Counted from the stretch's first letter, positions 11,012-37,916 are shown. The stretch: DNA of 64,000 nt from an uncultured Planctomycetia bacterium (GCA_964629655.1 CAZVQU010000001.1:420056-484055), one strand, 5' to 3'. The notes: generated by a model not told the origin, from the letters alone. Made by a program: numbers and translations.

Positions 11012-11088
11012 ATCTTCTAAATTGGCCTAGAATTCAGTGTTTTTCTGGGAAATTATTATAGCAATCGTAAGGCAAAATGCAAAGGATT

Positions 11089-12288
11089 TTATTGAAGGAT
11101 TAGTTTTAAAAATCTCTTCTTGCCAACCTTAAAAATTGCTCCTTGAGGAGAAATCTTTAAGCTCTGTTCTTTCAAAACAGTAATTACTTTAGCCTCTGAA
11201 TCTAGGAGAGAAATACCTCCTTGAGATAAGAGCCTGCGAGCTTCATTTTTAGAAGCCACCAGCTTCGCATTATGTAGAATCTCTATTATATCTACTGTAG
11301 ATTCTTCTACTTTCAATGTCGGTATCTCTTTAGGCAATTGGCCTTGAGAAAATACCTTTTCGAACTCTTTTCTTTCCTTTGCCCCTCTTCCTTTCGAATG
11401 GTAAAAAGAAACAATACTCTCAGCTAAATCTAGCTTAACCTCTTTAGGATGATTATTTTTTAACTCTTCGGGGTTAAAATCACTAAGAAGCCTGATGTAT
11501 TCCCACATAACCTCATCGGAAATACTCATTATTTTGCCAAACATAGATTTAGAACCCTCGGTTATGCCGATATAATTATTCAAAGACTTTGACATTTTAT
11601 TTTTCCCATCTAAACCTACTAAAATAGGCATAGTAACAATTGCCTGTGGAGATTGCCCGAGGATTTGCTGGAGATGCCGGCCAACAATTAAGTTAAACTT
11701 TTGGTCAGTTCCGCCAAACTCAATATCAGCTTCCATCTTATAAGAATCATACCCTTGTATTAAGGGGTAGATTATTTCTAAAACGGTAAGGGGTTTACCT
11801 TCTTTTATTCTCTTCGAGAAGTCGTCACGCTCTAGTATCCTGGCTATAGTATAAGAAGATAGTAGAGATAAAAACTTAGGCAGTCCTATTTTTTTATACC
11901 AAATGCTATTGTTGATTATCTTGGTCTTCTTTTTGTCTAAAATTTTAAATACTTGCTGGATATAGGTAGCGGCATTGGCTTTGATTTCTCTATCGGTTAA
12001 GACCGGGCGCAAGGTGCTTCTTTGAGAAGGATCCCCTATCTTAGCAGTAAAATCACCTATAATAAGGTAAACCTTATGGCCTAAATCCTGCAGTTTACGT
12101 AATTTTCTAAGAAGTACACTATGTCCTAGGTGGATATCTTTTGCGGTGGGATCAAAGCCAATCTTTAGCTTAAGAGGCTTATTCTTCTTAAAAGAGTTCT
12201 CTAGCTTAAGAGCTAACTCTTTCTCAACAATTAAGTCAACTGCATTCTCTTTTATGAGTTCAAGATGTTGGGATATCTTGCTCTTCAT
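11089..12288 (-). CDS. tyrS: Tyrosine--tRNA ligase
   Basis: Class I HIGH motif (DIHLGH) and KMSKS motif present. C-terminal S4-like domain. Confidence 0.9.
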   Translation of the reverse strand: MKSKISQHLELIKENAVDLIVEKELALKLENSFKKNKPLKLKIGFDPTAKDIHLGHSVLLRKLRKLQDLGHKVYLIIGDFTAKIGDPSQRSTLRPVLTDREIKANAATYIQQVFKILDKKKTKIINNSIWYKKIGLPKFLSLLSSYTIARILERDDFSKRIKEGKPLTVLEIIYPLIQGYDSYKMEADIEFGGTDQKFNLIVGRHLQQILGQSPQAIVTMPILVGLDGKNKMSKSLNNYIGITEGSKSMFGKIMSISDEVMWEYIRLLSDFNPEELKNNHPKEVKLDLAESIVSFYHSKGRGAKERKEFEKVFSQGQLPKEIPTLKVEESTVDIIEILHNAKLVASKNEARRLLSQGGISLLDSEAKVITVLKEQSLKISPQGAIFKVGKKRFLKLILQ

Positions 12289-20136: not shown

Positions 20137-23100
20137 TCACTCCTCGCTCGCGCAGCGCTCCAGGGAAATAATGTTAAACGTAAGACCGGCAGCATCTTTG
20201 AATTCCTGGACCATGCGCGCACCGAGGATCTGGGTTACGTTCCCAAAACCTCCTGAAATTTCTACGCTGGTCGTTAAATCAATTCCTCCTTTGGTGGCAC
20301 TCAGTGCTGACGATACAGACATCTGTTGATTACCCTCAACGTAATGATACACCGAATCATACTTCGGGGGTAAGTTAGAACGTGAAGGACGCTTTTGCGG
20401 TTCACGCGCAAACGCTAACTGAGGAAACTGAATATCCGGACGACGATTGACTATCTTTAACACTAGATCTGACCTGTCCGTCTGCTCGTCAAGGTATTTC
20501 ATGCGTCCGGGCACATAAAAATACTGCTTACCGGGGACGTTGAGCCGGTTAAAGAACTTTTCTTTACTCATACCTTCAATGGAAAAACCTTCAATCAGGC
20601 TAAAGAATGCGACACCATCTTTTTCCAGCACCCGCTTTACTTCACTAATTAAGACATGCTTATTCTTTAGATACACACCGACGGCGACCGGAACTAATAC
20701 TCCTAAGAATTCACCATCTTCGTAAGGCAGGCCGTTCTCAACATCCCAGAGCTTTAATCTACTGCGAAAATCATGCATAAACCGATCAAACAGCATTTCG
20801 CGGGCTTCAAAGCTTACCGCGTTGATTCTTTGCTTCATCAAGCCATAATTTGGTAAATACAACTCTTCTTTATTGATGAATTGTAATTCAATATTAGGAA
20901 AATTTTCCTGGATATCCTGAACAACAACCCCGGCGCCCACCCCGATAATCAGTAACTTCTTAGGACTTTCCTTTGTCGAGCGGCGATTAAGTTCATCAAG
21001 GAATTGTGAAACTTCCCCTTCAAAAATACGATCATCGACCCAAAGCCCGCGGGTAGTATTATTCATCCCGTAAGGATTCTTAATTGAAGATGAGGCTGCG
21101 CTACCGCCGGTGATACTCAAAGGTTGCTGGTAATCATCACTTTGCTTTATTTCTCCCCGCGGCCGCACATCCCGTAAAGAAATATTCTTAATGACCCTTA
21201 CATATTCCGGCCACCCTCCACCTTGCTCTGCATTCTCAGCGATGTATTTTATGGCTTTACTGTATACCGATGAAAATTGGCTCTGATCGATACTATATTT
21301 ACGCATTAGTAATGCTACCTGAAGGTTCACATCTGCGGAAACTCTGGCACCAATTTCATGATGTTCTGAGTAATGATCATAGGGCTCCAATATGTCATCG
21401 GTCAACCGAGCAGTGGGAACCAGCGACAAGGTACCGTATGTGCCCAACACCTGATTGCGGGCCGATTGAAACTCTTCACTGCTTGTATCCAGTTGCAATA
21501 GTTTCCTTTTGTGCACAGAGGTATCAAACGTTGCCTCCTGTTCGATAAATCCTCCCAGATAATAGAGTTCCGACGGCGTAAGAAAGGTAATAATCCCGGG
21601 AATACTTTCTCCGGAACTTGTTAATAATTGTCGCAGGCGCCGATAGCCAAGAACCCGCTCTAACCATGATAACGTTTGTTCAGTTGGAAAATTAGTATTT
21701 TTTAACACCTCCTTGGCAAGTTCTGTGCGATGATAGGCATAGGTAAGCACTTCCGAGAAATGATGAATAAAGCTAGCCCGGTTCGCCAGCGCAAAACCAA
21801 ATCGATCAGCAAATTCATGATTAACTTGTTTGTCTTTCTCATTGTCAATAACAAATCCTTTATATCCTTGACTATTCTCAAGGATAAGGAACTCATACAA
21901 ATGTGCGATCTCACTACTTAAACTGAATGCACCTCCCTGTATGCTCACTTCCGTAATCATCGCCAATGGTGATTGGAGGGAAATATTGTCACGGTTAAGC
22001 AAACCAGTAGAAAATGATCCACCACCCCAGGGATTACTCATATAAAAATACCATCGATGACGATGCATGAATCCCTTGGGCAATAACGCTAGCACCGAAT
22101 CATCCCATAACCGCAGATACTGCGCATAAGCCAAACCCCAGAGAAAATCTCCTAAATCATCTTGGTTTATTTCCTGCTGTCGTAATATGCCCTTGATTTT
22201 TTCTGCCTCCCGAACAGAACGTGCTCGATTTCCTCCAGGAACAAGCGATTCGTTTAATGCAAGCATTAAAAGATCCTGGACACCCATTGCCTGTATTTCT
22301 CGATCACTATAGTATCCATTCTGTCTTGCTTTGTGACGAATGATGGGAACTACAACTGTATCTATCCATGATTGATACCCGCCAACCATATCACCAGTTA
22401 CCAGACTGATTAAAGCATTTTCTGCCTCAACAGAGGATATTACTTCGTCTCTGGCCAGTCTTACCAGGAGAGAAAGACAACCATGAAAGAGCTTCGTCAT
22501 TTCGTCTTTTCGATCATAATCTTTCATAGTATTGATTTCTCTCATGCGATTAACGTAAGTCTCAACCGTTGCCACACTCGATACGGGCACAACTTCAAAC
22601 AGGACAAACATATTCCAATATTTTCTATACGTATCCACCTGCGCTGCCATCAGCCGCAATATGTCCTCTAAAACTTTAGCATCACCCCTCCACTTATGTG
22701 TCGTTCCCACAAACGCATAAAACAAGCGCTTCATCGAATCATCCTGGCAGGCGACAGGCAACGGAACCACTTTTAAAAGAATTGCTCTTCTTTGAGGAGA
22801 GAGGCGACTTAATTGATGAAAAACTTCGCTAACATAGTAATCAGATATGAGCTTTCTAAAAATAGTAGCAAGACTTACATCGCTTCCCAAAACAGTTTTC
22901 CATATATCAACTCCCCCCGGTACCGACGTTATTTTCCCTTGTGAGAATCCAATGTAATTTAAGGTGGGAATCAAATTGTAACTAATATTCGCTACATGCT
23001 TACTGTTCATCCAGGCATAGGCATCAATGTGATCGAGAACAAATAATTGTTTCTCTAGATTTATCTTGGACAGAGGGGTAATGATGTATTCTTTGAATTT

Positions 23101-25293
23101 CTTAAGTTCTTCTCGTGAATTTATCTCTCCTTCAATACTGATGGCAATCCTTTGCCGAACAACATCATCAAACTCACTAAGCAACGCTTCTTTTTCAACG
23201 GCAATGCGAGCCTGTTCATCCGGATAACGCACATAAATATCAACACCTGATAAATAATGTGACGGTTCGTTCGTTTCCCATGTCTTGTACAAAACATCCT
23301 GCGAGAAGGGAGCATCGGGCGTAACGTTAACTGCAAAAGGCTTGACCGCTAAAGATGTTTTCTCAGCATAGGCGTTAATTTTATCAAATACTGCAACCGG
23401 ATCGATCCCTACAAGATATTCGGTAGTATACGTTTCCTGAATGACCAATTTTACCTTATCGCCTAAGGCAGTTTTGAGCACTCTCCCTGCAGTATCAATA
23501 TTTGCCTTCTTATAATCGCTGAACCCTGCAGCGACGTGCCTACTACCGGCAAAGCCGATGATCTTTGCATGAGGATTCTTTTTTAATATTTCAAAGACAT
23601 GTAAGGCCATCCCTTCATCGACCGTCACTCGCTCTCCCTGAGCATTCGTTACATACCCATACTCATCTCCCATGCCAGGAACGGTTGTATGTGCGGTACG
23701 TGGATCAAAAGCAGTCACCTTGATACCGGCGCTGCGAGCAGCACTGAAAATATCTTCATAGGCCGCAAAAGCTGCTTCAGGAAATCCCACGGGTATGTCG
23801 GAATAAATAATTCCGTCAAGCATCCTTGGGTTACCGCTTTTCATGTAAAGATCGATGTACTCTTGATACTGCTCGTCTATCTCAAGAACGATATCGGTCA
23901 ATCCGCGGTCCCGCATGATACTCATTACATTAACCATGACATTCTTATGATCTACACTGGAATGTTCTTCACCAAGCATAACCACCTGCGCTCCTTGTTC
24001 AAAAAGATCAACGATAGTCTGGGTGATGTTTGTCCGGGCGTTTTGTTCAATGTACTGCATCACTGATGCTTCAGAGGCTAATATCGGCTCGGGCACTGTC
24101 AGCGTAAGTGTTTTAACCGGAGCGATGCTACATGCAGTAAGAAACATCGTTCCCAGTGTGAAGAATGTCCGACGCGTCATGCGTATTGGCGATGAACTCA
24201 CCGAGACATTGAGCCACTCTTCGGAATCAGAAAATCCCAGGCCACCGGAAAAGTACCTCCGTTTGATTTGCCTTCGTTCATAGGGATCGTAATCTTTTCG
24301 TATGTAATTATAAATGCCTTTCTTAAAGGACTCGACATACTGGTCATAAATCGTGTTCTTTATATCTTTGTCTTCTATGTCGATACCGGTTACCTTATTT
24401 TTATCGATGTAATATTGATAAATTGAATTTCTTAATTTCTGCTTAAACCAGGCCGCCAGAATGACCGAATGATATATCTGCCTGAGCCTGGCAAAATGTT
24501 GTTTATGGTTTACTTCCCCTGAGAGTTCGGGAAGGATAGTTTCTTTCATGATGCAGGAAGTCACTTTATTGATTTGCTCGGCCTGGGTAAGTGGCTTCTC
24601 TTGCTGTTCGCTGTGGCGGGAGAGTGCAAGATAATCTTCTTCGAGAAGAACTTTTAAACTGGCGTCGGTAATCATGGCTATGGTTCCGTCTTCGATAACC
24701 TTCGCCTGTCCGGGCACAATCCAGACCTTATTAAACGTATTGACTGGAACGTTTATAGTGGCAGCAAGCTTGTATATCTCTTTATAAGTCATCTCCCAAT
24801 AGTCCTTACCGGTAGCAGTATCCGGATGCATGAATGATGCGATGAGTTGCTTTAATAAGTAATCCTGAGCCAGCATGTCTTTCCCCAGATCAGTGACGCC
24901 TAAGCTATCAGGAATTATCCTGTCCTGTTCATAAGGAGAAAGATTCACCCATAAATCCTGTTCAGGGGTAGTAAGCGCTGCCAGGAAATATTTGATAAGA
25001 TCGGAGGCTTCTTCTTCACTTATTTCATCCTTATCCTGGGTATCAATAACGAACTGAAGTTTAAGTGGGTCCTTGGGATCAAGCTGTATGCCTTTGAGTA
25101 CAGGATAAGAATGGGTATATGAAGGAGCGAGCAACTGTTGAGCTGACGGTAGATCAAGTGCTACAGCATGGGCTTGTTCATCATTTACGCCTAATCGCTG
25201 GACATAGAAATACATGGAGCCTGCTGCAAGACAAACTGCAACATAGAGCCCTATTGCCCTAAAACCAATAGTACCTTTCTTATGGTGAGTCAT
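20137..25293 (-). CDS. Giant (1718 aa) multi-domain membrane/lipoprotein: N-terminal TM segment, internal Tat-type lipoprotein signal, ChaN/Tiki/TraB-like GxxH domain, long helical middle, C-terminal spermidine-synthase-like Rossmann methyltransferase fold
   Basis: Single uninterrupted ORF. TM helix at residues 14-31. TRRTFFTLGTMFLTAC at residue ~372 fits a Tat motif plus lipobox. Paired GxxH motifs (GEEH, GSRH) follow. C-terminal GxGxG (LLIIGVGAGVVVQD) precedes an acidic residue, as in PABS/class I methyltransferases. Confidence 0.6.
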   Translation of the reverse strand: MTHHKKGTIGFRAIGLYVAVCLAAGSMYFYVQRLGVNDEQAHAVALDLPSAQQLLAPSYTHSYPVLKGIQLDPKDPLKLQFVIDTQDKDEISEEEASDLIKYFLAALTTPEQDLWVNLSPYEQDRIIPDSLGVTDLGKDMLAQDYLLKQLIASFMHPDTATGKDYWEMTYKEIYKLAATINVPVNTFNKVWIVPGQAKVIEDGTIAMITDASLKVLLEEDYLALSRHSEQQEKPLTQAEQINKVTSCIMKETILPELSGEVNHKQHFARLRQIYHSVILAAWFKQKLRNSIYQYYIDKNKVTGIDIEDKDIKNTIYDQYVESFKKGIYNYIRKDYDPYERRQIKRRYFSGGLGFSDSEEWLNVSVSSSPIRMTRRTFFTLGTMFLTACSIAPVKTLTLTVPEPILASEASVMQYIEQNARTNITQTIVDLFEQGAQVVMLGEEHSSVDHKNVMVNVMSIMRDRGLTDIVLEIDEQYQEYIDLYMKSGNPRMLDGIIYSDIPVGFPEAAFAAYEDIFSAARSAGIKVTAFDPRTAHTTVPGMGDEYGYVTNAQGERVTVDEGMALHVFEILKKNPHAKIIGFAGSRHVAAGFSDYKKANIDTAGRVLKTALGDKVKLVIQETYTTEYLVGIDPVAVFDKINAYAEKTSLAVKPFAVNVTPDAPFSQDVLYKTWETNEPSHYLSGVDIYVRYPDEQARIAVEKEALLSEFDDVVRQRIAISIEGEINSREELKKFKEYIITPLSKINLEKQLFVLDHIDAYAWMNSKHVANISYNLIPTLNYIGFSQGKITSVPGGVDIWKTVLGSDVSLATIFRKLISDYYVSEVFHQLSRLSPQRRAILLKVVPLPVACQDDSMKRLFYAFVGTTHKWRGDAKVLEDILRLMAAQVDTYRKYWNMFVLFEVVPVSSVATVETYVNRMREINTMKDYDRKDEMTKLFHGCLSLLVRLARDEVISSVEAENALISLVTGDMVGGYQSWIDTVVVPIIRHKARQNGYYSDREIQAMGVQDLLMLALNESLVPGGNRARSVREAEKIKGILRQQEINQDDLGDFLWGLAYAQYLRLWDDSVLALLPKGFMHRHRWYFYMSNPWGGGSFSTGLLNRDNISLQSPLAMITEVSIQGGAFSLSSEIAHLYEFLILENSQGYKGFVIDNEKDKQVNHEFADRFGFALANRASFIHHFSEVLTYAYHRTELAKEVLKNTNFPTEQTLSWLERVLGYRRLRQLLTSSGESIPGIITFLTPSELYYLGGFIEQEATFDTSVHKRKLLQLDTSSEEFQSARNQVLGTYGTLSLVPTARLTDDILEPYDHYSEHHEIGARVSADVNLQVALLMRKYSIDQSQFSSVYSKAIKYIAENAEQGGGWPEYVRVIKNISLRDVRPRGEIKQSDDYQQPLSITGGSAASSSIKNPYGMNNTTRGLWVDDRIFEGEVSQFLDELNRRSTKESPKKLLIIGVGAGVVVQDIQENFPNIELQFINKEELYLPNYGLMKQRINAVSFEAREMLFDRFMHDFRSRLKLWDVENGLPYEDGEFLGVLVPVAVGVYLKNKHVLISEVKRVLEKDGVAFFSLIEGFSIEGMSKEKFFNRLNVPGKQYFYVPGRMKYLDEQTDRSDLVLKIVNRRPDIQFPQLAFAREPQKRPSRSNLPPKYDSVYHYVEGNQQMSVSSALSATKGGIDLTTSVEISGGFGNVTQILGARMVQEFKDAAGLTFNIISLERCASEE

Positions 25294-29267: not shown

Positions 29268-29342
29268 TTGGTTGCCCCGTCTGGACTCGAACCAGAAATA
29301 GCTGATCCAGAATCAGCCGTGCTACCGATTACACCACGGGGC
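29268..29342 (-). tRNA. tRNA-Gln (anticodon CUG)
   Basis: Minus-strand sequence TGCCCCGTGGTGTAATCGGTAGCACGGCTGATTCTGGATCAGCTATTTCTGGTTCGAGTCCAGACGGGGCAACCA. 7-bp acceptor stem UGCCCCG/CGGGGCA. Anticodon loop UUCUGGA. T-arm GGTTCGAGTCC. CCA is encoded. Confidence 0.85.
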
Positions 29343-29431
29343 AAGTTCCTATTATTGTAGTATTTCCAACGGGTTCTGGCAAGCATAATATAGTAATTTC
29401 CATTTGGAGACTGACAAGGCACAAACAGCCA

Positions 29432-29645: not shown

Positions 29646-31025
29646 ATGGAAAAAAAGGCACGTTTAGTAACACTTTTATTAATCTGCTTTCTGCTTCCCT
29701 TAAACATTTGGGCTGCAGCAAGCCTCTCAGTGGTTCCTCTCGAAGGAGGCAATAGCCTTCGCTTTGGAAGAATAACCTCCGACAGTACAATAAGCAAACA
29801 AGTCAGGATAAGAATTACTTCTGATTTAGGAGTAAAATACCAGGTCGAACAAAGACTGCTCGAGCCTTTGCGAAATGCTAGAGGCGAATCACTAAATGCT
29901 GATGTCTTTAATTTCTACACCTTAAGGGGCTCAAACCTAACTGGTAGCCTTTACCAAGACACACCTTACAGAGTAGATACTTTCAAAAGAATTCTTTATG
30001 TTTCAGCTGCTGCCGGTACCGGCGATTCTTTTTCAGTTATTTATTCAATTGACCCAAGTAAAATAAACATCTCGGGAAATTTCTTTGGTAGAATTTTATT
30101 TACTTTTACTCCTCTAGGCGCCGGTGGCACCCAAAGAGAAGTTATCCTTAATGTTTACTTTGAAACTGAGAAGAACTTTCAGGTAAGTCTAAGAACATCT
30201 TCTCAAAGCTCCCGAACCTTAAGACTTTCGTCAAGTAAGGATCAATTAGAGGGTTACTTACAAATTAGTGCCGAAGGTTCTTTAGGGCAAAAATACGAAG
30301 TAAAGCAAGTAGTCCAGGAGCCATTTAAAAATGAGAAGGGCGAAGTTATTCCCTTAGAGCTAGTTAAAGTATTCGCATCAAGCAGTAAAGGTCAAACCTA
30401 TGCCTCCTCTCCCACTCCTCTGGCTAGAAAGACTCTCCTGATATACGGTTCCGAGGCCCGAGGAGAAGGCGATGAAATCGTAGTTAACTTTTCTGTCAAC
30501 ACTGAAGACTTTGAAGAATTGCCGAGCGGTCATTTTAAAGCCCTAGTATTATATAATATCGAATCTCTGGGCTCTTTGATAAAAAGACTACCAGTAGATA
30601 TATCTTTAGAGATAAAGCCGATATTTGATATCGAAGTCGTCTCTGAATCTGTGGGGGGCTTATATTTTCGAAACTTAAAGCCCGACTCAGGATTAATAGA
30701 AAAAGAAATAATCATTAAAGTCCAAACTAATCTCAATCGGCCTTACAACGTTGTCCAAAATCTAAACACTCCGCTTGCTAATCAAAGCGGAAATACTATT
30801 CCTTTGCAATCCTTCCGCTTAAGAGAAGAAGAAAGTAAAGATAATCCAGGAAATATAATTTTTTCTCAATATACTCCTTTAAATTTAGGAGATACTAGAG
30901 TTTTTGCTTCTAATTCAACCGGTGATTCTTCAGAATTCAAAATCATTTATTCTTTGGAGGTTCCAAGGGACATGGTTGGCGGGGACTACTTTACAGGATT
31001 AAACTACTCTCTAGTAGAGAAATAA
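29646..31025 (+). CDS. Secreted protein with three tandem pilin-like (spore-coat-U/Csu-like) domains; candidate tip adhesin or fibre subunit
   Basis: Start set at the ATG at 29646 (MEKKARLVTLLLICFLLPLNIWAAAS signal peptide). The ORF-track start at 29634 is a TTG. Three ~140-aa repeats each carry a conserved core: LGVKYQVEQRLLEPLRNARGESL, LGQKYEVKQVVQEPFKNEKGEVIPL and LNRPYNVVQNLNTPLANQSGNTIPL. Confidence 0.6.
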   Translation: MEKKARLVTLLLICFLLPLNIWAAASLSVVPLEGGNSLRFGRITSDSTISKQVRIRITSDLGVKYQVEQRLLEPLRNARGESLNADVFNFYTLRGSNLTGSLYQDTPYRVDTFKRILYVSAAAGTGDSFSVIYSIDPSKINISGNFFGRILFTFTPLGAGGTQREVILNVYFETEKNFQVSLRTSSQSSRTLRLSSSKDQLEGYLQISAEGSLGQKYEVKQVVQEPFKNEKGEVIPLELVKVFASSSKGQTYASSPTPLARKTLLIYGSEARGEGDEIVVNFSVNTEDFEELPSGHFKALVLYNIESLGSLIKRLPVDISLEIKPIFDIEVVSESVGGLYFRNLKPDSGLIEKEIIIKVQTNLNRPYNVVQNLNTPLANQSGNTIPLQSFRLREEESKDNPGNIIFSQYTPLNLGDTRVFASNSTGDSSEFKIIYSLEVPRDMVGGDYFTGLNYSLVEK

Positions 31026-31058
31026 ATTATAAAACCAAAAAAAAGGAGGTGAATTGGT

Positions 31059-31685
31059 GTGAAAAAATTGATTGCAGCCTTAATGTTAATCTCACTTGTA
31101 AGTTCAGCGAGTATTTGTTCAGCAGGAACTACTGCTAGTGTAGGTGTTCAGGCTACTGTTCCACAACAGTTGGAGCTAAGTAGCTGGATTCGCTATGCTC
31201 CTCCGGGAGTTGATCCTTACGGAACAGGCTCAGGGGATGCCGCAAGCTTAGACTTTGGTACTCTTGCCTTTGATGATACCTATCATACATGGACAGCCTC
31301 GAAATACTTTACTGTATTTCTTCTGGCTAGCTCATCAGGAAGGCCCTATAGGATTGAACAGACAAATACAGGTTTTGTTCTTGGCAGCACTACTCTTGAT
31401 AACAACTTGATTTTGACTCCTGACTATCAGTCAGGTGACGAGATAGTATCAGGAACTGCTCAAGGAAGCATACCTTCAGGAGACAGTTTCGGTGCTAAGA
31501 CATTAGCTTTGGGAACCAACAAGATAATCTACAATGGCACCTCAGGGCTATCAAGAATAGCAAGAGCATACTATGGTCTAGCTACAGGGGATGCTGGTGA
31601 GCCCTCGGGGGCAGAACCAATCACTGGAGACCAAATCTCAGGAACATATGCGGGAACAATAACTTTTTCTGTTGTTCTCCAATAA
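31059..31685 (+). CDS. Secreted single-domain pilin-like subunit (spore coat protein U / CsuA/B-like)
   Basis: GTG start at 31059, preceded by an AAGGAGGTG RBS. Signal peptide. The RPYRIEQ core is shared with the repeats of the upstream protein. Gly/Ser/Thr-rich. The C-terminal alternating strand GTYAGTITFSVVLQ is characteristic of SCPU-domain donor-strand pilins. Confidence 0.55.
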   Translation: MKKLIAALMLISLVSSASICSAGTTASVGVQATVPQQLELSSWIRYAPPGVDPYGTGSGDAASLDFGTLAFDDTYHTWTASKYFTVFLLASSSGRPYRIEQTNTGFVLGSTTLDNNLILTPDYQSGDEIVSGTAQGSIPSGDSFGAKTLALGTNKIIYNGTSGLSRIARAYYGLATGDAGEPSGAEPITGDQISGTYAGTITFSVVLQ

Positions 31686-31842
31686 AGTTAAGTTGTAGAG
31701 ACATAGTACAAAACTTTTAAAGAAATCTACTACACAAAGATGGCCACCGGTAGATTATCCAGATTAACACAGATATTCTGTGTTAATCTCGGTTTTAAAA
31801 ATACTGTGGCCGTCTTTGTGTATAGTACAAAGAAGGAGATAA

Positions 31843-32640
31843 GTGCTTAAGAAAACTATTTTCCTATTTTTACTGTTTTTGTTGCCTTTCTCATCGTTTG
31901 CCTTAAGGATTGATAACCCTAAGATCAAACTCCAACTTTCTCCAAGCGACAATTACAGTGGAACTATTATTGTAGACAACCCCTCTAGTGATGAAGTCTC
32001 GGTAAAGACATACTTAGAAGACTTTACCTATGTCACTCCTTTTGATGGCGCTAAAGAGTTTTATGCTCAGGGCACAACAAAAGCATCCCTTTCGAAATGG
32101 ATAACCTTTTCTCCTCGAGAGTTCACATTGCAACCTTTTTCACGCCGAAGAGTTAATTTTTCAATAAGTCCTAAGTCTTCTTTCAATTCTGTTCGTTGTG
32201 GAGTTCTATTCTTTGAGACATCTATCGGAACTACCTATGAGAATGGCAAGGCGATAAATGTTGTGGGCAGAATCGGTTCTTTATTCTTTGTTGAACCAAA
32301 AAATAAGAGCAAGCGAGCAACTTTCACTAGTATTAAAGGCCTCTCTCATTCTTTAACCGGTGATTTTACTAACTCCGGTAATTCATTTATCCATGCTCAA
32401 GGCACATCCTATACCATAGATAACGAAGGCATGGTTAAAGATAGAAGTGTTTTAGAAGAAAGTTACCTTTTACCTAATGATAGTACCAAATTGCAAATGG
32501 CTTTATCTAGCGATTTAGCACCTGGCACTTACACGATGGTAATTACTTTTGATTTAGAGGAGGATGATTCTTTGGTTAAAGAAATTGATTTCTCTCTCTC
32601 AGGTTCAGGAAAAGTTACCGTCTTAGATGAGAGAAATTAA
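31843..32640 (+). CDS. Putative periplasmic PapD-like fibre chaperone
   Basis: Signal peptide (MLKKTIFLFLLFLLPFSSFA). N-terminal LRIDNPKIKL...GTIIVDNPSSDEVSV resembles the first β-strands and conserved Arg of Ig-fold pilus chaperones. The ~240-aa mature length fits two Ig-like lobes. Its stop overlaps the downstream start (TAATG). Confidence 0.45.
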   Translation: MLKKTIFLFLLFLLPFSSFALRIDNPKIKLQLSPSDNYSGTIIVDNPSSDEVSVKTYLEDFTYVTPFDGAKEFYAQGTTKASLSKWITFSPREFTLQPFSRRRVNFSISPKSSFNSVRCGVLFFETSIGTTYENGKAINVVGRIGSLFFVEPKNKSKRATFTSIKGLSHSLTGDFTNSGNSFIHAQGTSYTIDNEGMVKDRSVLEESYLLPNDSTKLQMALSSDLAPGTYTMVITFDLEEDDSLVKEIDFSLSGSGKVTVLDERN

Positions 32641-35516
32641 TGCCGAAAAAAATCAAAATTCTTTTATTGTTTGTAGTTTTTTTATTTTGCTTCTCCTCTA
32701 TTCTCTATCCCCAATCTCGCTCTTGTAGGTATTTATTAGAGCTGGGTAAGTGGGAATTAAGAGACGACAACTACGAAAAAGCCCTCCATTACTTTCAAAT
32801 TGCTCAATTAATAGATCCCGAATCAAAGGAAGCCCTGTCTTATATTAACTTAATAAAACGGGCGCTTGAAGGCAGAATTATCCGTGATGAGATCTATGAC
32901 GAAGAAGAGATTGCCAGCTCAACAGAATCTATTCTGGAAGGAAAAAGCAAAGATAAAGAAAAGCAACGAGAAGTAATAAGTGATACTCTGACTTCTTGGG
33001 AGAAAAAAATAGCTGGAGGGAAAAAAGATCAGGAAAAAATTACTGTCTTCCCCCCTCTATACCTTAAAACTATCCAAGAGATCGAGGAAGAAAAAGGAAT
33101 CAAAGAAATAAAAGATACGGAAAAAGTAAAAAGAAAAGTAGCTCCTCATAAGAAAAAAACAGCTAAAAAAGAAGAAATAATCTACCTTACCTCTGAAACT
33201 AGGGATGAATTCCCTCTAACCATAAAAATCGCCCCCGGTGAATCATTCAAAATTGACTCTGAAACCTTAAAAAGATTTCTGATAGTCTCTCCGGGAGTAA
33301 TTAAAGTAGATAAGCTTGCCATTAATGCCTTGGGCGTCACTGCTGCCAGCCTCGGCTCTTCATTCTTACATGTTTGGGATGACGTCGGCAGGTGGACCTT
33401 TAATATAAAAATTATCCCTCCACGAGTAGTAGTGAAAACCGAACAACTTTGGGAAAAGCCTGATGGCTTTAAATTCATGTATAGTGCTGACTACAGCCAA
33501 TATTACAGAGGTGATAAGTTTGCTGACATGGAAAGGCAAACACTCACCTATGATGAAGGAGCAGCTATCGTCGGACCAACCCCCTATGGGGAGTTAGATG
33601 CTTCTGTAAATTGGTCACGGCTTAATAAGCAAAAGGAAGTAACCGGCTATACTGTAGGCTTAAGCGAAGGGCGTTTCTTGAATTTTAAAGATTTTTATAT
33701 CCGTGGTTTTGATTTTAGAGAAACTTTCTCGTCTTTATCATTCCCAGGAGAAACCTTAAAGGGTGTAGTCTTTAGATCACCGGCTTTTCATGAAAAAATC
33801 GAATATACTCTGCTTTACGGGCGACAAAAGCAATACTCATCAGGAATCATCTCTCCAGGGGTTATCGAAGAAGAAGACTCTTATATTGAAGGCTTACGGC
33901 TGAGCTTGTTCCCGCATAATAAACATAAGTTTTTCTTTAACTATGCTCACGGATTTGGCGAAGACAGAGAAGATTATCTTAAAGACGAGGTTTTCTCTTT
34001 CCAAAGTGAGCACAATTTCGGAAATCTTGATATCATAACTGAAGTAGCTTCAGATAAAGACTCTATAGGAGCCAACTTCTCTTCAAAAATCCAGATGCCC
34101 AAACTTAACTTAAATCTTTCTTTTCGCGATATCGAGAAGGATTTTGTTACTATCTCAGGTAGACCGCCTAACACCGGAGAAATTGGAGCTATCGCTGGTC
34201 TCGATTGGAATCCAAACGATAAGGTCTCCCTAAACTCAAGCCTAGATGTCTATAGAGATAGAGAGTTTTTTAATCCTGAAAACGAAAATGACCCTAATTT
34301 TAATTGGAATAATTATTTGAATATACGCTTATCACCCACTTCGAACTTAGCTACAAGTCTGTATTATATTAATTCTCCAGGCCTTCTCTCACCCCAAAGA
34401 AGTTTAAATGCCACTACTACCTATAGCAAAAGGTTTAACTGTAACCTCTTTGGTGATAGATCAATTAATACATTCCTTGGCTACAATTACCAGAGGAGCA
34501 TTAATCCCCTTTCACCGACCTCTGACTACAGACGTGACGGCATACTTAGCGGCTTACGCCTTCAATTAGCCGGAGACCTATATTATTACCTTAACTATAA
34601 CTTCTCCTGGGTAGATGAACTCTATACTGGTGAGGAATCAAAACCTTCGGTTACTGAGACCGGATTAGACTTCTACCACACCTTTAATCCTAATTTATCT
34701 TCTAACTTACGCTTAAGTTACCGTGATGAAGAGAATGCATCTGCTCTACACTCCTTCCTCTCTGGAGAAGATAGCCTCGAAGGAAGCCTAAACCTTACTT
34801 ACAGCCCTAAAAAAGGTGCTGAATTCTTCCTTGATGGAAGAGTAAGAAATGTCTGGGCCGAGAATGCTGGCACAGAAGAGTTTATCGAAGCTGACATACG
34901 ACTAGGAGCACGCTTATCCTGGGACAACTTCTTCAGCTGGTCACCGGAGACAACAATACAAGGTTTTGTATTCAAAGACTCTAATGGTAACGGGGAAAAA
35001 GATGATGATGAAATTGGAATACCTGGAGTAGAAATAATTGCCGGCCCTAAAAAAGTTACCAGCACCAAAAGTGGAAAATTTACTACTACAGTAAAGGCAA
35101 AAAGGATAATTGCTAATATCAACTTTAATAGTGCACCTAAAGGCTATATTTTAACTACTCCGGCATCTTTTAATTTAGATACCTCTACTGGCGAAAAACA
35201 TAACATAAATTTTGGCATATCTCCTCAATCAGGAATATACGGAGTTGTTTTTTACGACTCTAACGGAAATAATAAGCTGGATAAAAAAGATACTACTATT
35301 TCGGGAGTAAAGATAATCCTCAATCAGAAGAAAAAAACAGTTACCAATAGCGAAGGTGTTTATTTCTTCGGTGGTATTCCTACCGGAACCCATAGCTTAA
35401 CCTTTGATGTTAATTCTATACCTTTAGAATATTTGCCTAAGGTCTCGATAAAAAAAGAGGTAGATGTTTCTGAAGGACTTACCTACACCTACCATATCCC
35501 CTTGCAAAAGAAATAA
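32640..35516 (+). CDS. Large outer-membrane assembly-platform-like protein: TPR + CpaC/secretin-type N-terminal domain + Tyr/Asn/Ser-rich β-barrel-like region + two C-terminal CnaB/SdrD-B-like β-sandwich domains (usher analogue?)
   Basis: Signal peptide. TPR helix pair. A K/E-rich linker. GESFKIDSETLKRFLIVSPGVIKVD...LGSSFLHVWDDVGRWTFNIKI matches the pilus-formation N-domain found at the N-terminus of CpaC-type secretins. About 450 aa of alternating-polarity β-strands end in Y/F/W-rich strands. Two C-terminal repeats (GFVFKDSNGNGEKDDDEIGIPGVEI, GVVFYDSNGNNKLDKKDTTISGVKI) follow. Confidence 0.55.
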   Translation: MPKKIKILLLFVVFLFCFSSILYPQSRSCRYLLELGKWELRDDNYEKALHYFQIAQLIDPESKEALSYINLIKRALEGRIIRDEIYDEEEIASSTESILEGKSKDKEKQREVISDTLTSWEKKIAGGKKDQEKITVFPPLYLKTIQEIEEEKGIKEIKDTEKVKRKVAPHKKKTAKKEEIIYLTSETRDEFPLTIKIAPGESFKIDSETLKRFLIVSPGVIKVDKLAINALGVTAASLGSSFLHVWDDVGRWTFNIKIIPPRVVVKTEQLWEKPDGFKFMYSADYSQYYRGDKFADMERQTLTYDEGAAIVGPTPYGELDASVNWSRLNKQKEVTGYTVGLSEGRFLNFKDFYIRGFDFRETFSSLSFPGETLKGVVFRSPAFHEKIEYTLLYGRQKQYSSGIISPGVIEEEDSYIEGLRLSLFPHNKHKFFFNYAHGFGEDREDYLKDEVFSFQSEHNFGNLDIITEVASDKDSIGANFSSKIQMPKLNLNLSFRDIEKDFVTISGRPPNTGEIGAIAGLDWNPNDKVSLNSSLDVYRDREFFNPENENDPNFNWNNYLNIRLSPTSNLATSLYYINSPGLLSPQRSLNATTTYSKRFNCNLFGDRSINTFLGYNYQRSINPLSPTSDYRRDGILSGLRLQLAGDLYYYLNYNFSWVDELYTGEESKPSVTETGLDFYHTFNPNLSSNLRLSYRDEENASALHSFLSGEDSLEGSLNLTYSPKKGAEFFLDGRVRNVWAENAGTEEFIEADIRLGARLSWDNFFSWSPETTIQGFVFKDSNGNGEKDDDEIGIPGVEIIAGPKKVTSTKSGKFTTTVKAKRIIANINFNSAPKGYILTTPASFNLDTSTGEKHNINFGISPQSGIYGVVFYDSNGNNKLDKKDTTISGVKIILNQKKKTVTNSEGVYFFGGIPTGTHSLTFDVNSIPLEYLPKVSIKKEVDVSEGLTYTYHIPLQKK

Positions 35517-35780
35517 TTACTTTATTAACGCAGTCTTTAAAAGGACTCTCTGGCCCTCTCGGGTTACCTCCTCTATAGCTATTACTCTTTCCTCTTCGAC
35601 TATGACCCCATACTCAACCTCTTCGCTGGCCTCATCAACCTCTGTCGGTATAACAAATTCTTCATTAATCTCAACCCTTTGAGGAATAGTAAAAGAAGCT
35701 CTAACGACGGTAGTATTGCCAGCTAACACAGAAATAGGGATAATGACTAACAGCACAGAGATTAAAACATACTTACTCAT
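35517..35780 (-). CDS. Small secreted acidic protein
   Basis: 87 aa with signal peptide (MSKYVLISVLLVIIPISVLA) and a Glu/Val-rich C-terminus. Convergent with and abutting the plus-strand operon. Confidence 0.4.
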   Translation of the reverse strand: MSKYVLISVLLVIIPISVLAGNTTVVRASFTIPQRVEINEEFVIPTEVDEASEEVEYGVIVEEERVIAIEEVTREGQRVLLKTALIK

Positions 35781-36012
35781 CTTGGCCTCCTTTCTTATCC
35801 TTCATCTCTAACTTCAAATCCTGGATTATTTGTTTTTTCAGCCAAAGATCCTTAGACACATGGACTATCTCTTTAATTACATGAGAACGGGCAACTTTCT
35901 TTCCGATTGCAAAATAGAGATCTTTTACTATCTTATCGAGAAAATCCAGCTCCTCCCTATTTATGAAGGAAACTACTTTGAAAAGGATTTGTTTTTTGCT
36001 ATGTTCTTTCAT
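35773..36012 (-). CDS. Small putative DNA-binding protein (ribbon-helix-helix-like)
   Basis: 79 aa. An N-terminal alternating hydrophobic strand (KQILFKVVSF) is followed by two predicted helices. Its stop overlaps the start of the downstream small secreted protein by 8 nt. Confidence 0.3.
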   Translation of the reverse strand: MKEHSKKQILFKVVSFINREELDFLDKIVKDLYFAIGKKVARSHVIKEIVHVSKDLWLKKQIIQDLKLEMKDKKGGQDE

Positions 36013-36071
36013 TTTTCTAAAATTAAAAAAGCCCTTTTAAGGCACACTCGATACCTAAAAAGGGCTACAAT

Positions 36072-36100
36072 AAAAAAACCCTAAGGCAACTATCTTAGGG
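36072..36100 (-). terminator. Rho-independent terminator (minus-strand orientation)
   Basis: Hairpin CCCTAAG-(8 nt loop)-CTTAGGG at 36079-36100. On the minus strand it is followed by a run of seven T (plus-strand A-run 36072-36078). Confidence 0.5.
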
Positions 36101-36436
36101 TTTACTAACTCCCCCCTTTGGGTAACCCCTCTATCCTGGCAGGACAGGTGGTTTTGCGTCTCCCAATTACTCGGGATTTGCCTTTGTCCGAAGAGACCTA
36201 ATTGTCAATCAGCTTACAATTAATTGATAACACATTTTTTGCAAAAAAACAAGTATATAAAAGGATAAAATTGCTTTTTTGCACTTTTACATTTAGACTA
36301 AAAAACCCAATACCTGATTGCCTTTTTTACTCTAGCTATGTTAGAAATGGGGGTTCTGGGAAAGATTTTACCTCAAAGCTGTGGGAAAAAATACCAGAAA
36401 GGTACTCATTCGGAAGTAGAGGGAGAGCAGAAAAAC

Positions 36437-36610
36437 CTACCAGCAATTCTCTCTAATCCACTCATCAGCCCGCTCAATTGCTTTCCAGGTATTATAGGCA
36501 TCATCAGCTAAACCCTTGCCAATGCCCCCTACTCCCATCTTTACTGTTTGACAACCGCTTACGACTACAAGAAAGACAAAAGAAAGTAAGCCTAAAATCA
36601 CCCTACGCAT
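36437..36610 (-). CDS. Small putative lipoprotein (57 aa)
   Basis: Read manually. MRRVILGLLSFVFLVVVSGCQTVKMG... has a lipobox (VVSGC). The ATG overlaps the last codons of gltX. It is below the 60-aa cut-off of the ORF track. Confidence 0.3.
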   Translation of the reverse strand: MRRVILGLLSFVFLVVVSGCQTVKMGVGGIGKGLADDAYNTWKAIERADEWIRENCW

Positions 36611-37916
36611 CAAAACCTCCTTGTTTCCAATAATTAATCAATCTACTTAACCTTTGACAAACTTTATCTTTCCCTAAAACTTCCATTGTCTCAAATAATC
36701 CCGGGCCAATTCTCTTTCCGGTTAAAGCAATGCGAGTAGGATGAACCAAATCTTTCATCTTCAACCCTAAATCTCCAATTGTAGCTCTAAACTCTTTTTC
36801 GATTGCCTCGGTATTAAACTCCTTAATCCCACTTAATCTTTTTATCAAAGCCTTAATCTCTTTTGAAAAATTTCTTTCTAGAATGCCTTTTGTATCTTCA
36901 CTATAGCTAAACTCATCATAAAAGCAAAATCGAGCCCAGTCAACTAAATCCGATAGTTTAAAAATCCTTCCTTGGAAAAGAGCAGCAACCTTCTCTAGAT
37001 AGCTTCTTTCTACCCCTTGGGGAAGAAAATCTTGAGTCTTTAAAAAACTTTCGACTAAATCAGTGAGCTCTTCTACTTTCATTGCCTTTATATACTCAGC
37101 GTTTACCCAATTGAGCTTATCGAGAGAGAATATTGCTCCGGTTTTATTAACATTCTTTACCTCAAAGATACTCTTCGCTTCGTCTAAAGAAAATATCTCT
37201 TTATTATCTCCCGGTGACCAACCTAAAAGCAAGAGATAATTAGCTATAGCCTTAGATAAATAACCCATTTCTTTGTACTCTCTGATTGAAGTTGCCCCAA
37301 ATCTCTTGGAAAGTCTTCCTCCTCCCGGAGATAAAATTAACGGAGCATGAGCAAATTGGGGCACTTTGAAACCTAACCCTTTATACATTAAAATTTGCTT
37401 AGGAGTATTAGATATATGATCCTCGCCTCTTATTACGCAACTTATCTTCATCAGGGCATCGTCAATGCAACAGCTAAAGTTATAAGTTGGAGAGTTATCG
37501 CTCTTTATGATTACTTCTTCGCTCTTAGGCAACTCAGTAAAGGTAATTTTTCCACGGATTAGATCATCTATTACTACACTCTGAAAATCATACTTAAAAA
37601 ATATTGCTCCCTCTTTATGATAAGCTTTGCCTTCTTTAACTAGCTTATTGGCATATTCAAGGTAAATATCAAAACGCTTAGACTGGTAGTGAATCTCATC
37701 CCAATCCATACCCAGCCATTTTATGCTTTCTAAGATCTCATCGAGGTATTCTTTCTTAGAACGCTCTAAATCAGTATCTTCGACTCGTAGAATAAATTCA
37801 CCACCGATATGCTTAGCATAAAGCCAATTAAATATACAGGTACGTGCTCCGCCAATATGTAAATACCCCGTAGGAGAAGGGGCAAATCTTACTCTTAAAC
37901 CATTTGAATTACTCAT
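36603..37916 (-). CDS. gltX: Glutamate--tRNA ligase
   Basis: RFAPSPTGYLHIGGARTCIFNWL HIGH-region signature. KMSKS-like LSKR. Start set at the internal ATG (MSNSNGLRVRF). Confidence 0.85.
   Translation of the reverse strand: MSNSNGLRVRFAPSPTGYLHIGGARTCIFNWLYAKHIGGEFILRVEDTDLERSKKEYLDEILESIKWLGMDWDEIHYQSKRFDIYLEYANKLVKEGKAYHKEGAIFFKYDFQSVVIDDLIRGKITFTELPKSEEVIIKSDNSPTYNFSCCIDDALMKISCVIRGEDHISNTPKQILMYKGLGFKVPQFAHAPLILSPGGGRLSKRFGATSIREYKEMGYLSKAIANYLLLLGWSPGDNKEIFSLDEAKSIFEVKNVNKTGAIFSLDKLNWVNAEYIKAMKVEELTDLVESFLKTQDFLPQGVERSYLEKVAALFQGRIFKLSDLVDWARFCFYDEFSYSEDTKGILERNFSKEIKALIKRLSGIKEFNTEAIEKEFRATIGDLGLKMKDLVHPTRIALTGKRIGPGLFETMEVLGKDKVCQRLSRLINYWKQGGFDA

Follow-up and report, generated by a model that had tools for sequence, protein, structure and literature searches.

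Chaperone-usher pili are textbook structures and are generally regarded as limited to a few phyla and as dependent on an usher of the FimD/PapC type. Their members closest to the locus described here are the E. coli common pilus (EcpA-E), the class 5/CFA-I (CfaA) chaperones and the archaic Csu pili. In Gram-positive bacteria, WxL gene clusters encode WxLIP, which consists of DUF916, DUF3324 and a transmembrane helix, together with short and long WxL proteins (PMC10599100; PDB 9i1y, 9i25). c-di-GMP riboswitches, in turn, are the riboswitch class most frequent in antisense or convergent positions (PMC9943018). The Omnitrophota are uncultured nanobacteria with suspected host-attached or predatory lifestyles, for which one study discusses type IV pili as well as giant adhesins without mention of a fibre of the kind considered below (PMC10066038).

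Here, we describe a locus within a 64-kb stretch of DNA (64,000 nucleotides, referred to as the window), which probably encodes an undescribed, c-di-GMP-controlled variant of chaperone-usher-like fibre assembly. A preliminary description had interpreted it as an archaic chaperone-usher-type fibre system, an interpretation that is partly supported by the results presented below.

Gene layout and conservation of the cassette

The locus comprises the following features:

29269-29343, minus strand: tRNA-Gln(CTG)
29634/29646-31025, plus strand: g1 (ORF call), secreted protein of 459 aa, or of 463 aa from an upstream TTG
31059-31685, plus strand: g2 (ORF call), secreted 208-aa single-module subunit
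31727-31825, plus strand: RNA hairpin in the g2-g3 gap (dG -55 kcal/mol, z -8.5)
31843-32640, plus strand: g3 (ORF call), periplasmic two-domain protein of 265 aa, PapD-like/WxLIP-like
32640-35516, plus strand: g4 (ORF call), 958-aa predicted outer-membrane protein
35517-35780, minus strand: g5, secreted 87-aa mini-protein, convergent to g4
35773-36012, minus strand: g6, cytoplasmic 79-aa protein, translationally coupled to g5
36076-36103 and 36031-36065, minus strand: pair of tandem hairpins, terminator-like and with U-runs, separating the aptamer from g6
36117-36191, minus strand: aptamer of a c-di-GMP-I class riboswitch (best model: GGC variant RF03167)

The ORF calls place the four plus-strand genes exactly where the preliminary description had put them, with gaps of 33 nt and 157 nt, a TAATG stop/start overlap at 32638-32642 and the ribosome binding site AAGGAGGTG preceding the GTG start of g2. 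Orthologs of g1 align from the ATG at 29646. As had been claimed, g1-g4 form the sole substantial plus-strand block: throughout the 64-kb window, every other plus-strand ORF of 180 aa or more overlaps a longer ORF on the minus strand. Both proposed boundaries hold as well, as the tRNA-Gln gene lies on the minus strand ahead of g1, and g5 is a real gene with an AGGAGG ribosome binding site and a stop codon abutting that of g4. The ORF translations of all four genes start with a hydrophobic, signal-peptide-like N-terminus, as described before. The riboswitch, its two terminator-like hairpins and g6 (minus strand, 35773-36191) had been overlooked, and so had the very stable hairpin inside the 157-nt gap.

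A survey of the gene neighbourhood in relatives revealed about 20 loci of Omnitrophota metagenome-assembled genomes in which the order g1-g2-g3-g4 is maintained and g5 is convergent, whose flanks are unrelated and whose proteins share 25-89% identity. Four more distant loci contain variant cassettes, in which one to four small subunit genes are accompanied by one gene resembling g3 and one resembling g4. The cassette is thus real and conserved across the uncultured phylum Omnitrophota, and the conservation of its gene order is far beyond chance.

The secreted subunits g1 and g2

g1 consists of three homologous modules of ~140 aa (hhalign, 98-99.5% between modules), and g2 is a single module linked to module 3 of g1 (hhalign 68%, E 4.8e-5). 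The three-domain and single-domain architectures proposed earlier therefore stand. No sequence match to known pilins was found: Pfam and NCBIfam scans of g1 and g2 returned nothing usable, single proteins and profiles of g2 and of the subunit module gave only chance-level matches among PDB sequences, and the subunit profiles did not match E. coli FimA or EcpA in hhalign comparisons.

Modules 1 and 2 of g1 contain ~14 additional residues of an alternating hydrophobic strand past an invariant Gly motif, and this extra C-terminal strand is absent from module 3, from g2 and from all single-module subunits of related cassettes. The chain ends 13-15 residues after the invariant Gly in module 3 and likewise in the L025 subunits that consist of a single module, and g2 ends 9 residues past the equivalent Gly, shortly after a conserved GTYxGTITF strand. 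Furthermore, g2 possesses an N-terminal extension of alternating hydrophobic residues (TTASVGVQATVPQ). N-terminal extensions are also present in subunits 1 and 2 of L025 and in the 188-aa subunit of L031, and absent from g1, subunit 3 of L025 and the 162-aa subunit of L031. With an extra last strand only in the internal g1 modules and N-terminal extensions only in some subunits, the sequence logic fits subunits that lack the G strand, as in chaperone-usher pili, where the Ig-like subunit fold is completed first by the G1 strand of the chaperone and later by the N-terminal extension of the subunit that follows. We infer that the modules of g1 and g2 may adopt incomplete Ig folds, which would be completed by donor-strand exchange, and the extension of g2 would be consistent with such donor-strand logic. 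It is proposed that g1 may be the tip or first subunit, whose modules 1 and 2 would be completed in cis by their extra strand, and that g2 may be the major polymerising subunit. g2 evolves faster than the other genes of the cassette and has been duplicated in some loci, and several paralogous subunits of ~170 aa are encoded per cassette in L025 and L030.

Hairpins with z-scores of -4 or lower are found at the position of the g2-g3 hairpin in seven of ten other loci and one with a z-score of -2.5 in an eighth, and their sequences are unrelated between loci. We propose that the hairpin acts as an mRNA stabiliser or attenuator, which sets an excess of subunits over chaperone and pore.

The candidate chaperone g3 and the candidate pore g4

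The fold of g3 is PapD-like with two domains, both of which align with chaperones over 170-188 residues; its best Foldseek match in the PDB is WxLIP. The PapD-like character proposed earlier is thus upheld for the two-domain fold and not for the sequence family, as neither g3 nor any of 67 family members matches PapD_N or PapD_C (PF00345/PF02753) in Pfam at E <= 0.01. hhalign comparison with E. coli FimC gave no match, and remote profile homology was found to EcpB and likewise to EcpE. The g3 family also shows weak matches to the DUF916 profile, with WxLIP_PGBD and WxLIP_HBD as sub-threshold hits only, and all Pfam matches of g3 lie under the gathering score. The protein ends at residue 265 without a C-terminal hydrophobic or transmembrane helix. 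It contains a long conserved beta-hairpin (residues 118-152, GVLFFE...GRIGSLFF) and the invariant residues K71, R143 and R201, of which R143 aligns with the Arg of the EcpB sequence ARIGTILVV. In PapD, R8 and K112 are the conserved basic pair of the chaperone cleft, which anchors the C-terminus of the subunit. The g3-related family comprises 8,298 clusters at 50% identity (E <= 0.001). We propose that g3 is a chaperone for the subunits.

g4 starts with a signal peptide, followed by TPR-like helices (residues 25-76), a disordered linker (79-177), a T2SS-T3SS_pil_N-like domain (179-258), a ~26-strand beta-barrel without plug insertion (278-762) and two SdrD_B/CnaB-like sandwiches (771-957). In the AF2 model, the barrel is closed and antiparallel with an even number of strands. 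The preliminary description was right about the building blocks (TPR, CpaC-type N-domain, CnaB-like sandwiches) and about an usher-like layout of periplasmic N-domain, barrel and two C-terminal sandwiches; the barrel, however, has ~26 strands rather than ~24. The T2SS-T3SS_pil_N domain was detected in 26 of 29 members of the g4 family (best E 4e-8) and TPR in 17 of them; TPR is absent from the L025 variant. In g4, neither a 24-strand Usher barrel with internal plug (PF00577) nor a PapC_N N-terminal domain or PapC_C C-terminal domains were detected, and hhalign comparisons with E. coli FimD and EcpC gave no match. A role as polysaccharide porin or TonB receptor was rejected because partner genes and a plug are lacking. 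It is proposed that g4 may be an outer-membrane assembly and secretion pore.

The c-di-GMP riboswitches and the convergent genes g5 and g6

The aptamer of the window matches RF03167 over its full length (model positions 1-80) with 60.3 bits compared to a gathering score of 59. It belongs to Rfam clan CL00126, as judged by the full-length match above the gathering score, the location upstream of a gene and the presence of an expression platform, which is formed by the tandem terminator-like hairpins (36031-36103) downstream of the aptamer. Its sequence assigns it to the GGC variant of the c-di-GMP-I class, for which c-di-GMP is the predicted ligand. The riboswitch drives the convergent genes g6 and g5, running head-on into g4, and this unit of riboswitch and small gene recurs in 16 related loci, in which the aptamer occupies the same place (L001, 2, 4, 6, 9-15, 21, 22, 24, 25 and 31) and scores 35.7-71.9 bits with RF01051 or RF03167. 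In L022 and L031, a second riboswitch with an ON-type platform lies ahead of the subunit genes; since its terminator overlaps the aptamer, an ON switch is predicted. On the g5 side, the terminator is separate and sequence-conserved, and pairing of its 5' arm with the core of the aptamer is possible, so that an OFF switch is predicted. This OFF polarity is unproven and depends on a possible 6-bp antiterminator (AGGGGUU:AACCCU); the minimum free energy folds retain the terminator whether or not the 3' half of the aptamer is free. In line with a link to c-di-GMP, a PAS-GGDEF gene adjoins the L025 cassette.

g5 is the constant gene behind the riboswitch: across loci, it encodes a secreted mini-protein of 80-115 aa, with 0-260 nt between the stop codons of g5 and g4. 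In the protein, two conserved strands, TVVRASFTIPQRVEI at the N-terminus and REGxxVLLKTxLxK at the C-terminus, flank a linker that is acidic and variable. The N-terminal strand resembles the N-terminus of mature g2, and g2 proteins rank first after g5 itself with the full-length g5 HMM (E 1e-5). Once the signal peptide is removed, however, the best g2 match (E 0.077) is not significant, so that g5 as a g2-type donor strand is only a suggestion. It is tempting to speculate that g5 is a regulator, terminator or anchor of assembly. g6 is present in eight loci and shows a beta strand followed by NREELDFLD and G-K-K-x-x-R-S, a motif pattern which suggests a ribbon-helix-helix-like regulator. Nothing usable was found for g5 or g6 in the Pfam and NCBIfam scans, and the g6 profile gave only chance-level matches among PDB sequences.

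Proposed mechanism and alternative readings

The locus would encode a machine that assembles a surface fibre on a diderm Omnitrophota bacterium. Judging from their signal peptides, g1 and g2 would be exported to the periplasm by Sec as beta-rich modules that lack the last strand, with modules 1 and 2 of g1 carrying this strand in cis. g3 would hold these incomplete modules through a strand donated from its long conserved hairpin and deliver them to g4, which would form a ~26-strand barrel in the outer membrane, as modelled by AF2. By analogy only, as no homology was detected, the pilN-like N-domain and the two C-terminal sandwiches of g4 could stand in for the N- and C-terminal domains of an usher. 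As g1 lacks an N-terminal extension, it would enter first, at the tip of the fibre, and copies of g2 would come next, the N-terminal extension of each filling the preceding groove. The hairpin after g2 would raise the level of subunit mRNA over that of chaperone and pore. High c-di-GMP levels would favour fibres and low levels the expression of g5 and g6, which may restrain assembly as a chain-capping mini-subunit, as a repressor, by antisense transcription or by a combination of these.

The locus could also be a diderm counterpart of the Gram-positive WxL/WxLIP complex, in which g3 remains bound to g1 and g2, clamping both through strand insertion. The complex would then be a non-polymeric adhesin that the g4 barrel displays or anchors. 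WxLIP, the best Foldseek match of g3, indeed makes a stable surface complex and is not a transient chaperone. We nevertheless consider this reading unlikely: g3 lacks the C-terminal transmembrane helix and has only Pfam matches below the gathering score, g1 and g2 possess neither a WxL domain match nor a dual W-x-L motif, the dedicated ~26-strand barrel and the paralogous ~170-aa subunits of L025 and L030 resemble a fimbrial operon, and N-terminal extensions on some subunits and not on others fit polymerisation.

It is quite improbable that g4 serves the export or uptake of a non-protein substrate across the outer membrane, be it as an exopolysaccharide porin of the TPR-plus-barrel type (PgaA, BcsC, PelB) or as a nutrient channel, with g1-g3 as periplasmic or surface binding accessories. 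These porins are likewise c-di-GMP dependent; however, the conserved cassette contains no glycosyltransferase or synthase gene and its flanks differ in every locus, TPR is missing from the L025 variant and found in only 17 of the 29 g4 family members, g4 has no plug or TonB-box domain, and a PapD-like protein with several paralogous small secreted subunits is foreign to such systems. That four unrelated secreted proteins with separate functions share an operon, g3 being one more pair of Ig-like domains, is hardly credible given the synteny, as co-occurrence and order are strict at 25-89% identity and in the distant variants. Furthermore, the genes are translationally coupled, g3 shows profile homology to EcpB, and its chaperone alignments span both domains instead of a single Ig domain.

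The fibre-assembly reading can tentatively be taken further. The locus might represent a new, widespread class of donor-strand fibres, in which an EcpB/WxLIP-related chaperone is combined with a plug-less, ~26-strand non-usher barrel. Such a class would be an evolutionary bridge from Gram-negative chaperone-usher pili to Gram-positive WxL complexes, and a pair of c-di-GMP riboswitches with opposite effects would switch its assembly, the target of one being g5, a 60-residue 'strand-only' mini-subunit that would cap or anchor the fibre. If true, capping or anchoring by g5 would be a control of pilus length or termination of a kind not described before, and the fibre mechanism would be connected to the poorly understood Gram-positive WxL/WxLIP systems. 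If the chaperone principle was kept while pore and subunits were swapped, the mechanism would be older and more modular than thought. A phylum-wide, c-di-GMP-switched fibre would be an obvious candidate for the attachment organelle of Omnitrophota. The cassette also offers a defined function for c-di-GMP riboswitches that are conserved as a set, among them the GGC variant and a convergent arrangement that may act in antisense, and five protein families now annotated as hypothetical would gain names.

Comparison with known systems

The locus resembles chaperone-usher pili in that a periplasmic protein with a two-domain PapD fold and remote sequence homology to EcpB and EcpE adjoins several small secreted subunit genes, g4 combines a large outer-membrane barrel with an N-domain in the periplasm and a pair of C-terminal beta-sandwiches, the N-terminal extension is missing from one, tip-like subunit and present in the others, and g2, the gene of the presumed major subunit, is followed by a stem-loop. 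It differs in the barrel, which is built of ~26 strands, lacks a plug and shows no Usher/PapC homology, in the CpaC/pilN-type N-domain with TPR and the SdrD-B/CnaB-type C-domains, and in subunits that belong to no known pilin family (neither Fimbrial nor SCPU), with a proposed tip made of three tandem subunit-like modules. The host phylum and the control by c-di-GMP riboswitches and a convergent mini-gene are further differences.

In common with WxL clusters, the cassette encodes a long and a short surface protein together with a partner of two Ig domains and a small extra protein, and the Ig protein is predicted to place a hairpin strand in its partner. In contrast, g3 lacks a membrane anchor, its partner proteins show no sequence relationship (no match to the WxL domain PF13731 in g1, g2 or 30 g2 relatives at E <= 1), and an outer membrane with a dedicated barrel is involved. 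With the Tad/Flp secretin CpaC/RcpA, g4 shares the family of the small periplasmic T2SS-T3SS_pil_N domain; the rest of g4, however, is a monomeric porin-like barrel without secretin domain, and the cassette contains no Tad genes. As in the control of adhesins and pili by c-di-GMP-I (GEMM-I) riboswitches, the aptamer passes Rfam thresholds and lies upstream of genes for secreted or surface proteins, with expression platforms of the terminator type. Here, however, the constant target is a secreted mini-protein converging on the pore gene, and in some cassettes a second riboswitch is present, the polarity of the two being apparently opposite.

Organization of the cassette

The cassette consists of the genes g1 to g4 and, as claimed in the preliminary description, there is no other credible coding region on the plus strand of the window. 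The four ORFs lie where they had been placed, and the gaps of 33 nt and 157 nt, a AAGGAGGTG ribosome binding site 5′ of g2, the TAATG stop/start overlap and the bounding tRNA gene were all found.

29269-29343, minus strand: tRNA-Gln(CTG)
29646-31025, plus strand: g1, proposed tip subunit
31059-31685, plus strand: g2, proposed polymerising subunit
31843-32640, plus strand: g3, proposed chaperone
32640-35516, plus strand: g4, proposed outer-membrane pore

As the start of g1, the ATG at 29646 was chosen, since the alignment with orthologs begins at residue 5 of the longer ORF that starts with TTG. The 157-nt gap between g2 and g3 contains an exceptionally stable hairpin of around 100 nt (31727-31825, plus strand; -55 kcal/mol, z -8.5). 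Most other loci tested also have a stable hairpin at this point, with unrelated sequences, an arrangement that fits a differential expression of the subunit genes and the genes for chaperone and pore. Upstream, the minus-strand block contains an ORF of 1,718 aa (20137-25293); Omnitrophota are known for large or giant ORFs that resemble adhesin genes.

Distribution and conservation

Homologs of g2, g3 and g4 derive nearly exclusively from metagenome-assembled genomes (MAGs) of Candidatus Omnitrophota. The few records labelled otherwise are 'uncultured Planctomycetia' and one 'Methanosarcinales'; among the cassette loci, MAG titles reading 'Methanosarcinales archaeon' or 'uncultured Planctomycetia/Planctomycetales' occur among L021, L006, L007, L012, L017 and L018. 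These labels probably reflect mis-binning or provisional naming and not the true host range. The order g1-g2-g3-g4 is constant in every locus of sufficient length, while the flanking genes vary, so that the neighborhood conservation to be checked in relatives was indeed found. The fastest-evolving gene is g2 (25-78% identity), which is duplicated in some loci. Some loci contain an additional protein of around 500 aa with a g2-like C-terminus; such genes, whose C-terminal region matches g2, are located upstream of g1 on the plus strand in L011 (224-1738), L013 (1771-3276) and L014 (4313-5824) and may encode further multi-module subunits or adhesins. In L019, a group II intron domain match (165-236, plus strand; Rfam, 42.5 bits) lies just upstream of g1.

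A search with the g3 family profile among 1.84 billion representatives retrieved 8,298 clusters at E ≤0.001. Four distant family members were looked up (L025, L027, L030 and L031), and all four loci encode the same type of cassette. It comprises between one and four genes for small subunits (156-188 aa), a g4-like gene and a g3-like gene whose product has at least one additional Ig repeat. In L030, the g4-like gene is followed by a gene for a 265-aa OMP_b-brl protein (10711-11508, plus strand), which replaces the convergent g5 gene and its riboswitch described below.

A proposed PapD-like chaperone and a proposed pore without usher homology

The AlphaFold2 model of g3, based on an alignment of 67 sequences, is an all-beta, two-domain structure (mean pLDDT 93.8) with a long hairpin at residues 118-152. 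Its top Foldseek match is WxLIP (E 2.6e-12), the two-Ig-domain partner protein of Gram-positive WxL clusters, and the complex of WxLIP with a long WxL protein (9i25) was also matched. WxLIP is followed by the chaperones CfaA, FimC, EcpB, Caf1M, SafB and CsuC, all with probability 1.00, which supports a PapD-like fold, previously proposed for the N-terminus of g3. In a comparison of the family profile with PDB sequences, EcpB was the sole match (E 0.015). Using hhalign, g3 matched Escherichia coli EcpB at 91% (E 1.1e-6, 158 columns spanning both domains) and EcpE at 54%; no match was obtained with FimC. Pfam matches of g3 are exclusively of the Ig type and all below threshold, the most common one being WxLIP_PGBD/DUF916 (18 of 67 members). 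The protein has a signal peptide and lacks a C-terminal membrane helix. Taken together, these results place g3 in the PapD-like superfamily, as a soluble periplasmic protein with remote homology to ECP-type chaperones and an equally close structural similarity to WxLIP.

The AlphaFold2 model of g4 (pLDDT 79.8, pTM 0.56) comprises the following parts:

residues 25-76: TPR-like helices
residues 79-177: disordered linker
residues 179-258: small beta domain, T2SS-T3SS_pil_N in 26 of 29 relatives
residues 278-762: 26 long strands, most with pLDDT 85-97, without an inserted domain
residues 771-957: two sandwiches, SdrD_B in 29 of 29 relatives

The layout previously deduced for g4 thus holds for the TPR-like helices, the pil_N-type N-domain and the two C-terminal sandwiches; the modelled barrel has about 26 strands, against around 24 in the preliminary description. 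g4 is best read as a pore that is analogous to, but not homologous with, an usher.

Subunit architecture

The g1 protein consists of three homologous modules (hhalign 98-99.5%), the third of which also matches g2 (68%, E 4.8e-5), and no subunit matched any known pilin family. Modules of several g1 orthologs were aligned with the single-module subunits of L025, which revealed a conserved strand, 'sG-x-Y/F-x-g-x-i-x-Y/F-x-l'. In g1 modules 1 and 2, it is followed by a Gly-rich turn and a further alternating-hydrophobic strand (PLGAGGTQREVILNVYF and SLGSLIKRLPVDISLEI in the window), whereas only a few residues follow the conserved strand in module 3, in g2 and in all single-module subunits. An alternating-hydrophobic N-terminal segment of 12 to 15 residues is present in g2, in two of three L025 subunits and in one of two L031 subunits (TTASVGVQATVPQ, SGDVTLNVEVTA, TPINAAVTVKS and EEVDVAVTISS); it is absent from g1 and from one subunit in each of these two variant cassettes. 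An extra last strand restricted to internal modules, combined with selective N-terminal extensions, is what donor-strand complementation would predict, and the sequences suggest that the subunits follow this principle. The internal g1 modules would be completed in cis and the terminal modules left open; the extension-less subunit would begin the fiber, and extension-bearing subunits would polymerize. The C-terminal segment of g2, initially taken for a donor strand, is more plausibly the final strand that is retained next to an open groove.

Proposed control by c-di-GMP riboswitches

Two small minus-strand genes, g5 and g6, which converge on g4, are driven by a riboswitch of the c-di-GMP-I class. 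The riboswitch, its hairpins and g6 do not appear in the preliminary description.

35517-35780, minus strand: g5, 87 aa, AGGAGG ribosome binding site, head-on to g4 with abutting stop codons
35773-36012, minus strand: g6, 79 aa, upstream of g5 with stop/start overlap
36031-36103, minus strand: two tandem terminator-like hairpins between aptamer and g6
36117-36191, minus strand: full-length c-di-GMP-I class aptamer (RF03167, the GGC variant model, 60.3 bits)

A 58-aa minus-strand ORF with a lipoprotein-like signal (…VVVSGC…; 36437-36613) lies between the riboswitch and gltX and partially overlaps the gltX start region. The aptamer was found 5′ of a g5 homolog in 16 related loci (L001, L002, L004, L006, L009-L015, L021, L022, L024, L025 and L031), with RF01051 or RF03167 as the best model. 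As g6 occurs in only about eight loci, g5 is the constant target of the riboswitch. Common to the g5 proteins are a signal peptide, an N-terminal strand with a Pro after it (e.g. TVVRASFTIPQRVEI), a linker that is acidic and variable and, at the C-terminus, the conserved strand REGxxVLLKTxLxK. Their N-terminal strand is similar to the one in mature g2; without the signal peptide, the similarity is non-significant (E 0.077). g6, whose translation is coupled to that of g5, lacks a signal peptide. Its invariant residues (L10, F16, R19, E21, L22, D23, L25, D26, D31, F34, G37 and R42) form a pattern that resembles a ribbon-helix-helix regulator, an assignment for which database searches returned no match.

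In L022 (5665-5773, plus strand) and L031 (5563-5646, plus strand), a second c-di-GMP-I riboswitch is located directly 5′ of the first subunit gene. The 5′ arm of its terminator lies within the aptamer (CCGGGUUACC...GGUAAUCCGG-U7 in L022 and GCCGGGUUGCC...GGCAAUCCGGC-U4 in L031), so that ligand binding should block termination, which predicts an ON switch. The g5-side terminator is separate from the aptamer and of conserved sequence (AAACCCUAAG...CUUAGGGUUU); base pairing of its 5′ arm with the AGGGGUU core of the aptamer is possible and would result in an OFF switch, a weaker prediction than that of the ON switch. The L022 and L031 cassettes are thus predicted to be controlled by two riboswitches, apparently with opposite polarity. 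Among riboswitches, those for c-di-GMP are the class reported most often in convergent or antisense positions (PMC9943018). A further c-di-GMP link is a PAS-GGDEF (diguanylate cyclase-type) gene, which immediately adjoins the cassette in L025 (12521-14455, plus strand).

Comparison with known systems

The cassette probably encodes a chaperone-usher-like fiber assembly system, in which g3 would act as chaperone, g4 as non-homologous pore, g1 as tip, g2 as polymerizing subunit and g5 and g6 as c-di-GMP-dependent modulators. The main alternative is a non-polymeric, WxL-like surface complex, which we regard as rather unlikely. That the cassette encodes a channel for polysaccharides or solutes is very improbable.

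No description of such a system was found in the literature searched, in agreement with the initial impression. In the main Omnitrophota genomics paper (PMC10066038), there is no mention of chaperone-usher systems, PapD, fimbriae or c-di-GMP. Searches linking Omnitrophota with chaperone-usher systems, DUF916 with PapD, WxL with donor strands, or chaperone-usher systems with c-di-GMP riboswitches returned nothing relevant, and the DUF916 literature, among the matches listed, concerns Gram-positive bacteria or is unrelated to pilus assembly. The cassette is real and conserved and represents a hitherto undescribed version of a known type of machine, whose regulatory module is unexpected. Unlike the chaperone-usher family proper, it lacks an usher, PapD Pfam domains and subunits of any known pilin family, and, unlike WxL clusters, it has neither a WxL domain nor a membrane anchor. 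Although it thus falls outside both groups, the best reading is that the system works most like a chaperone-usher system.
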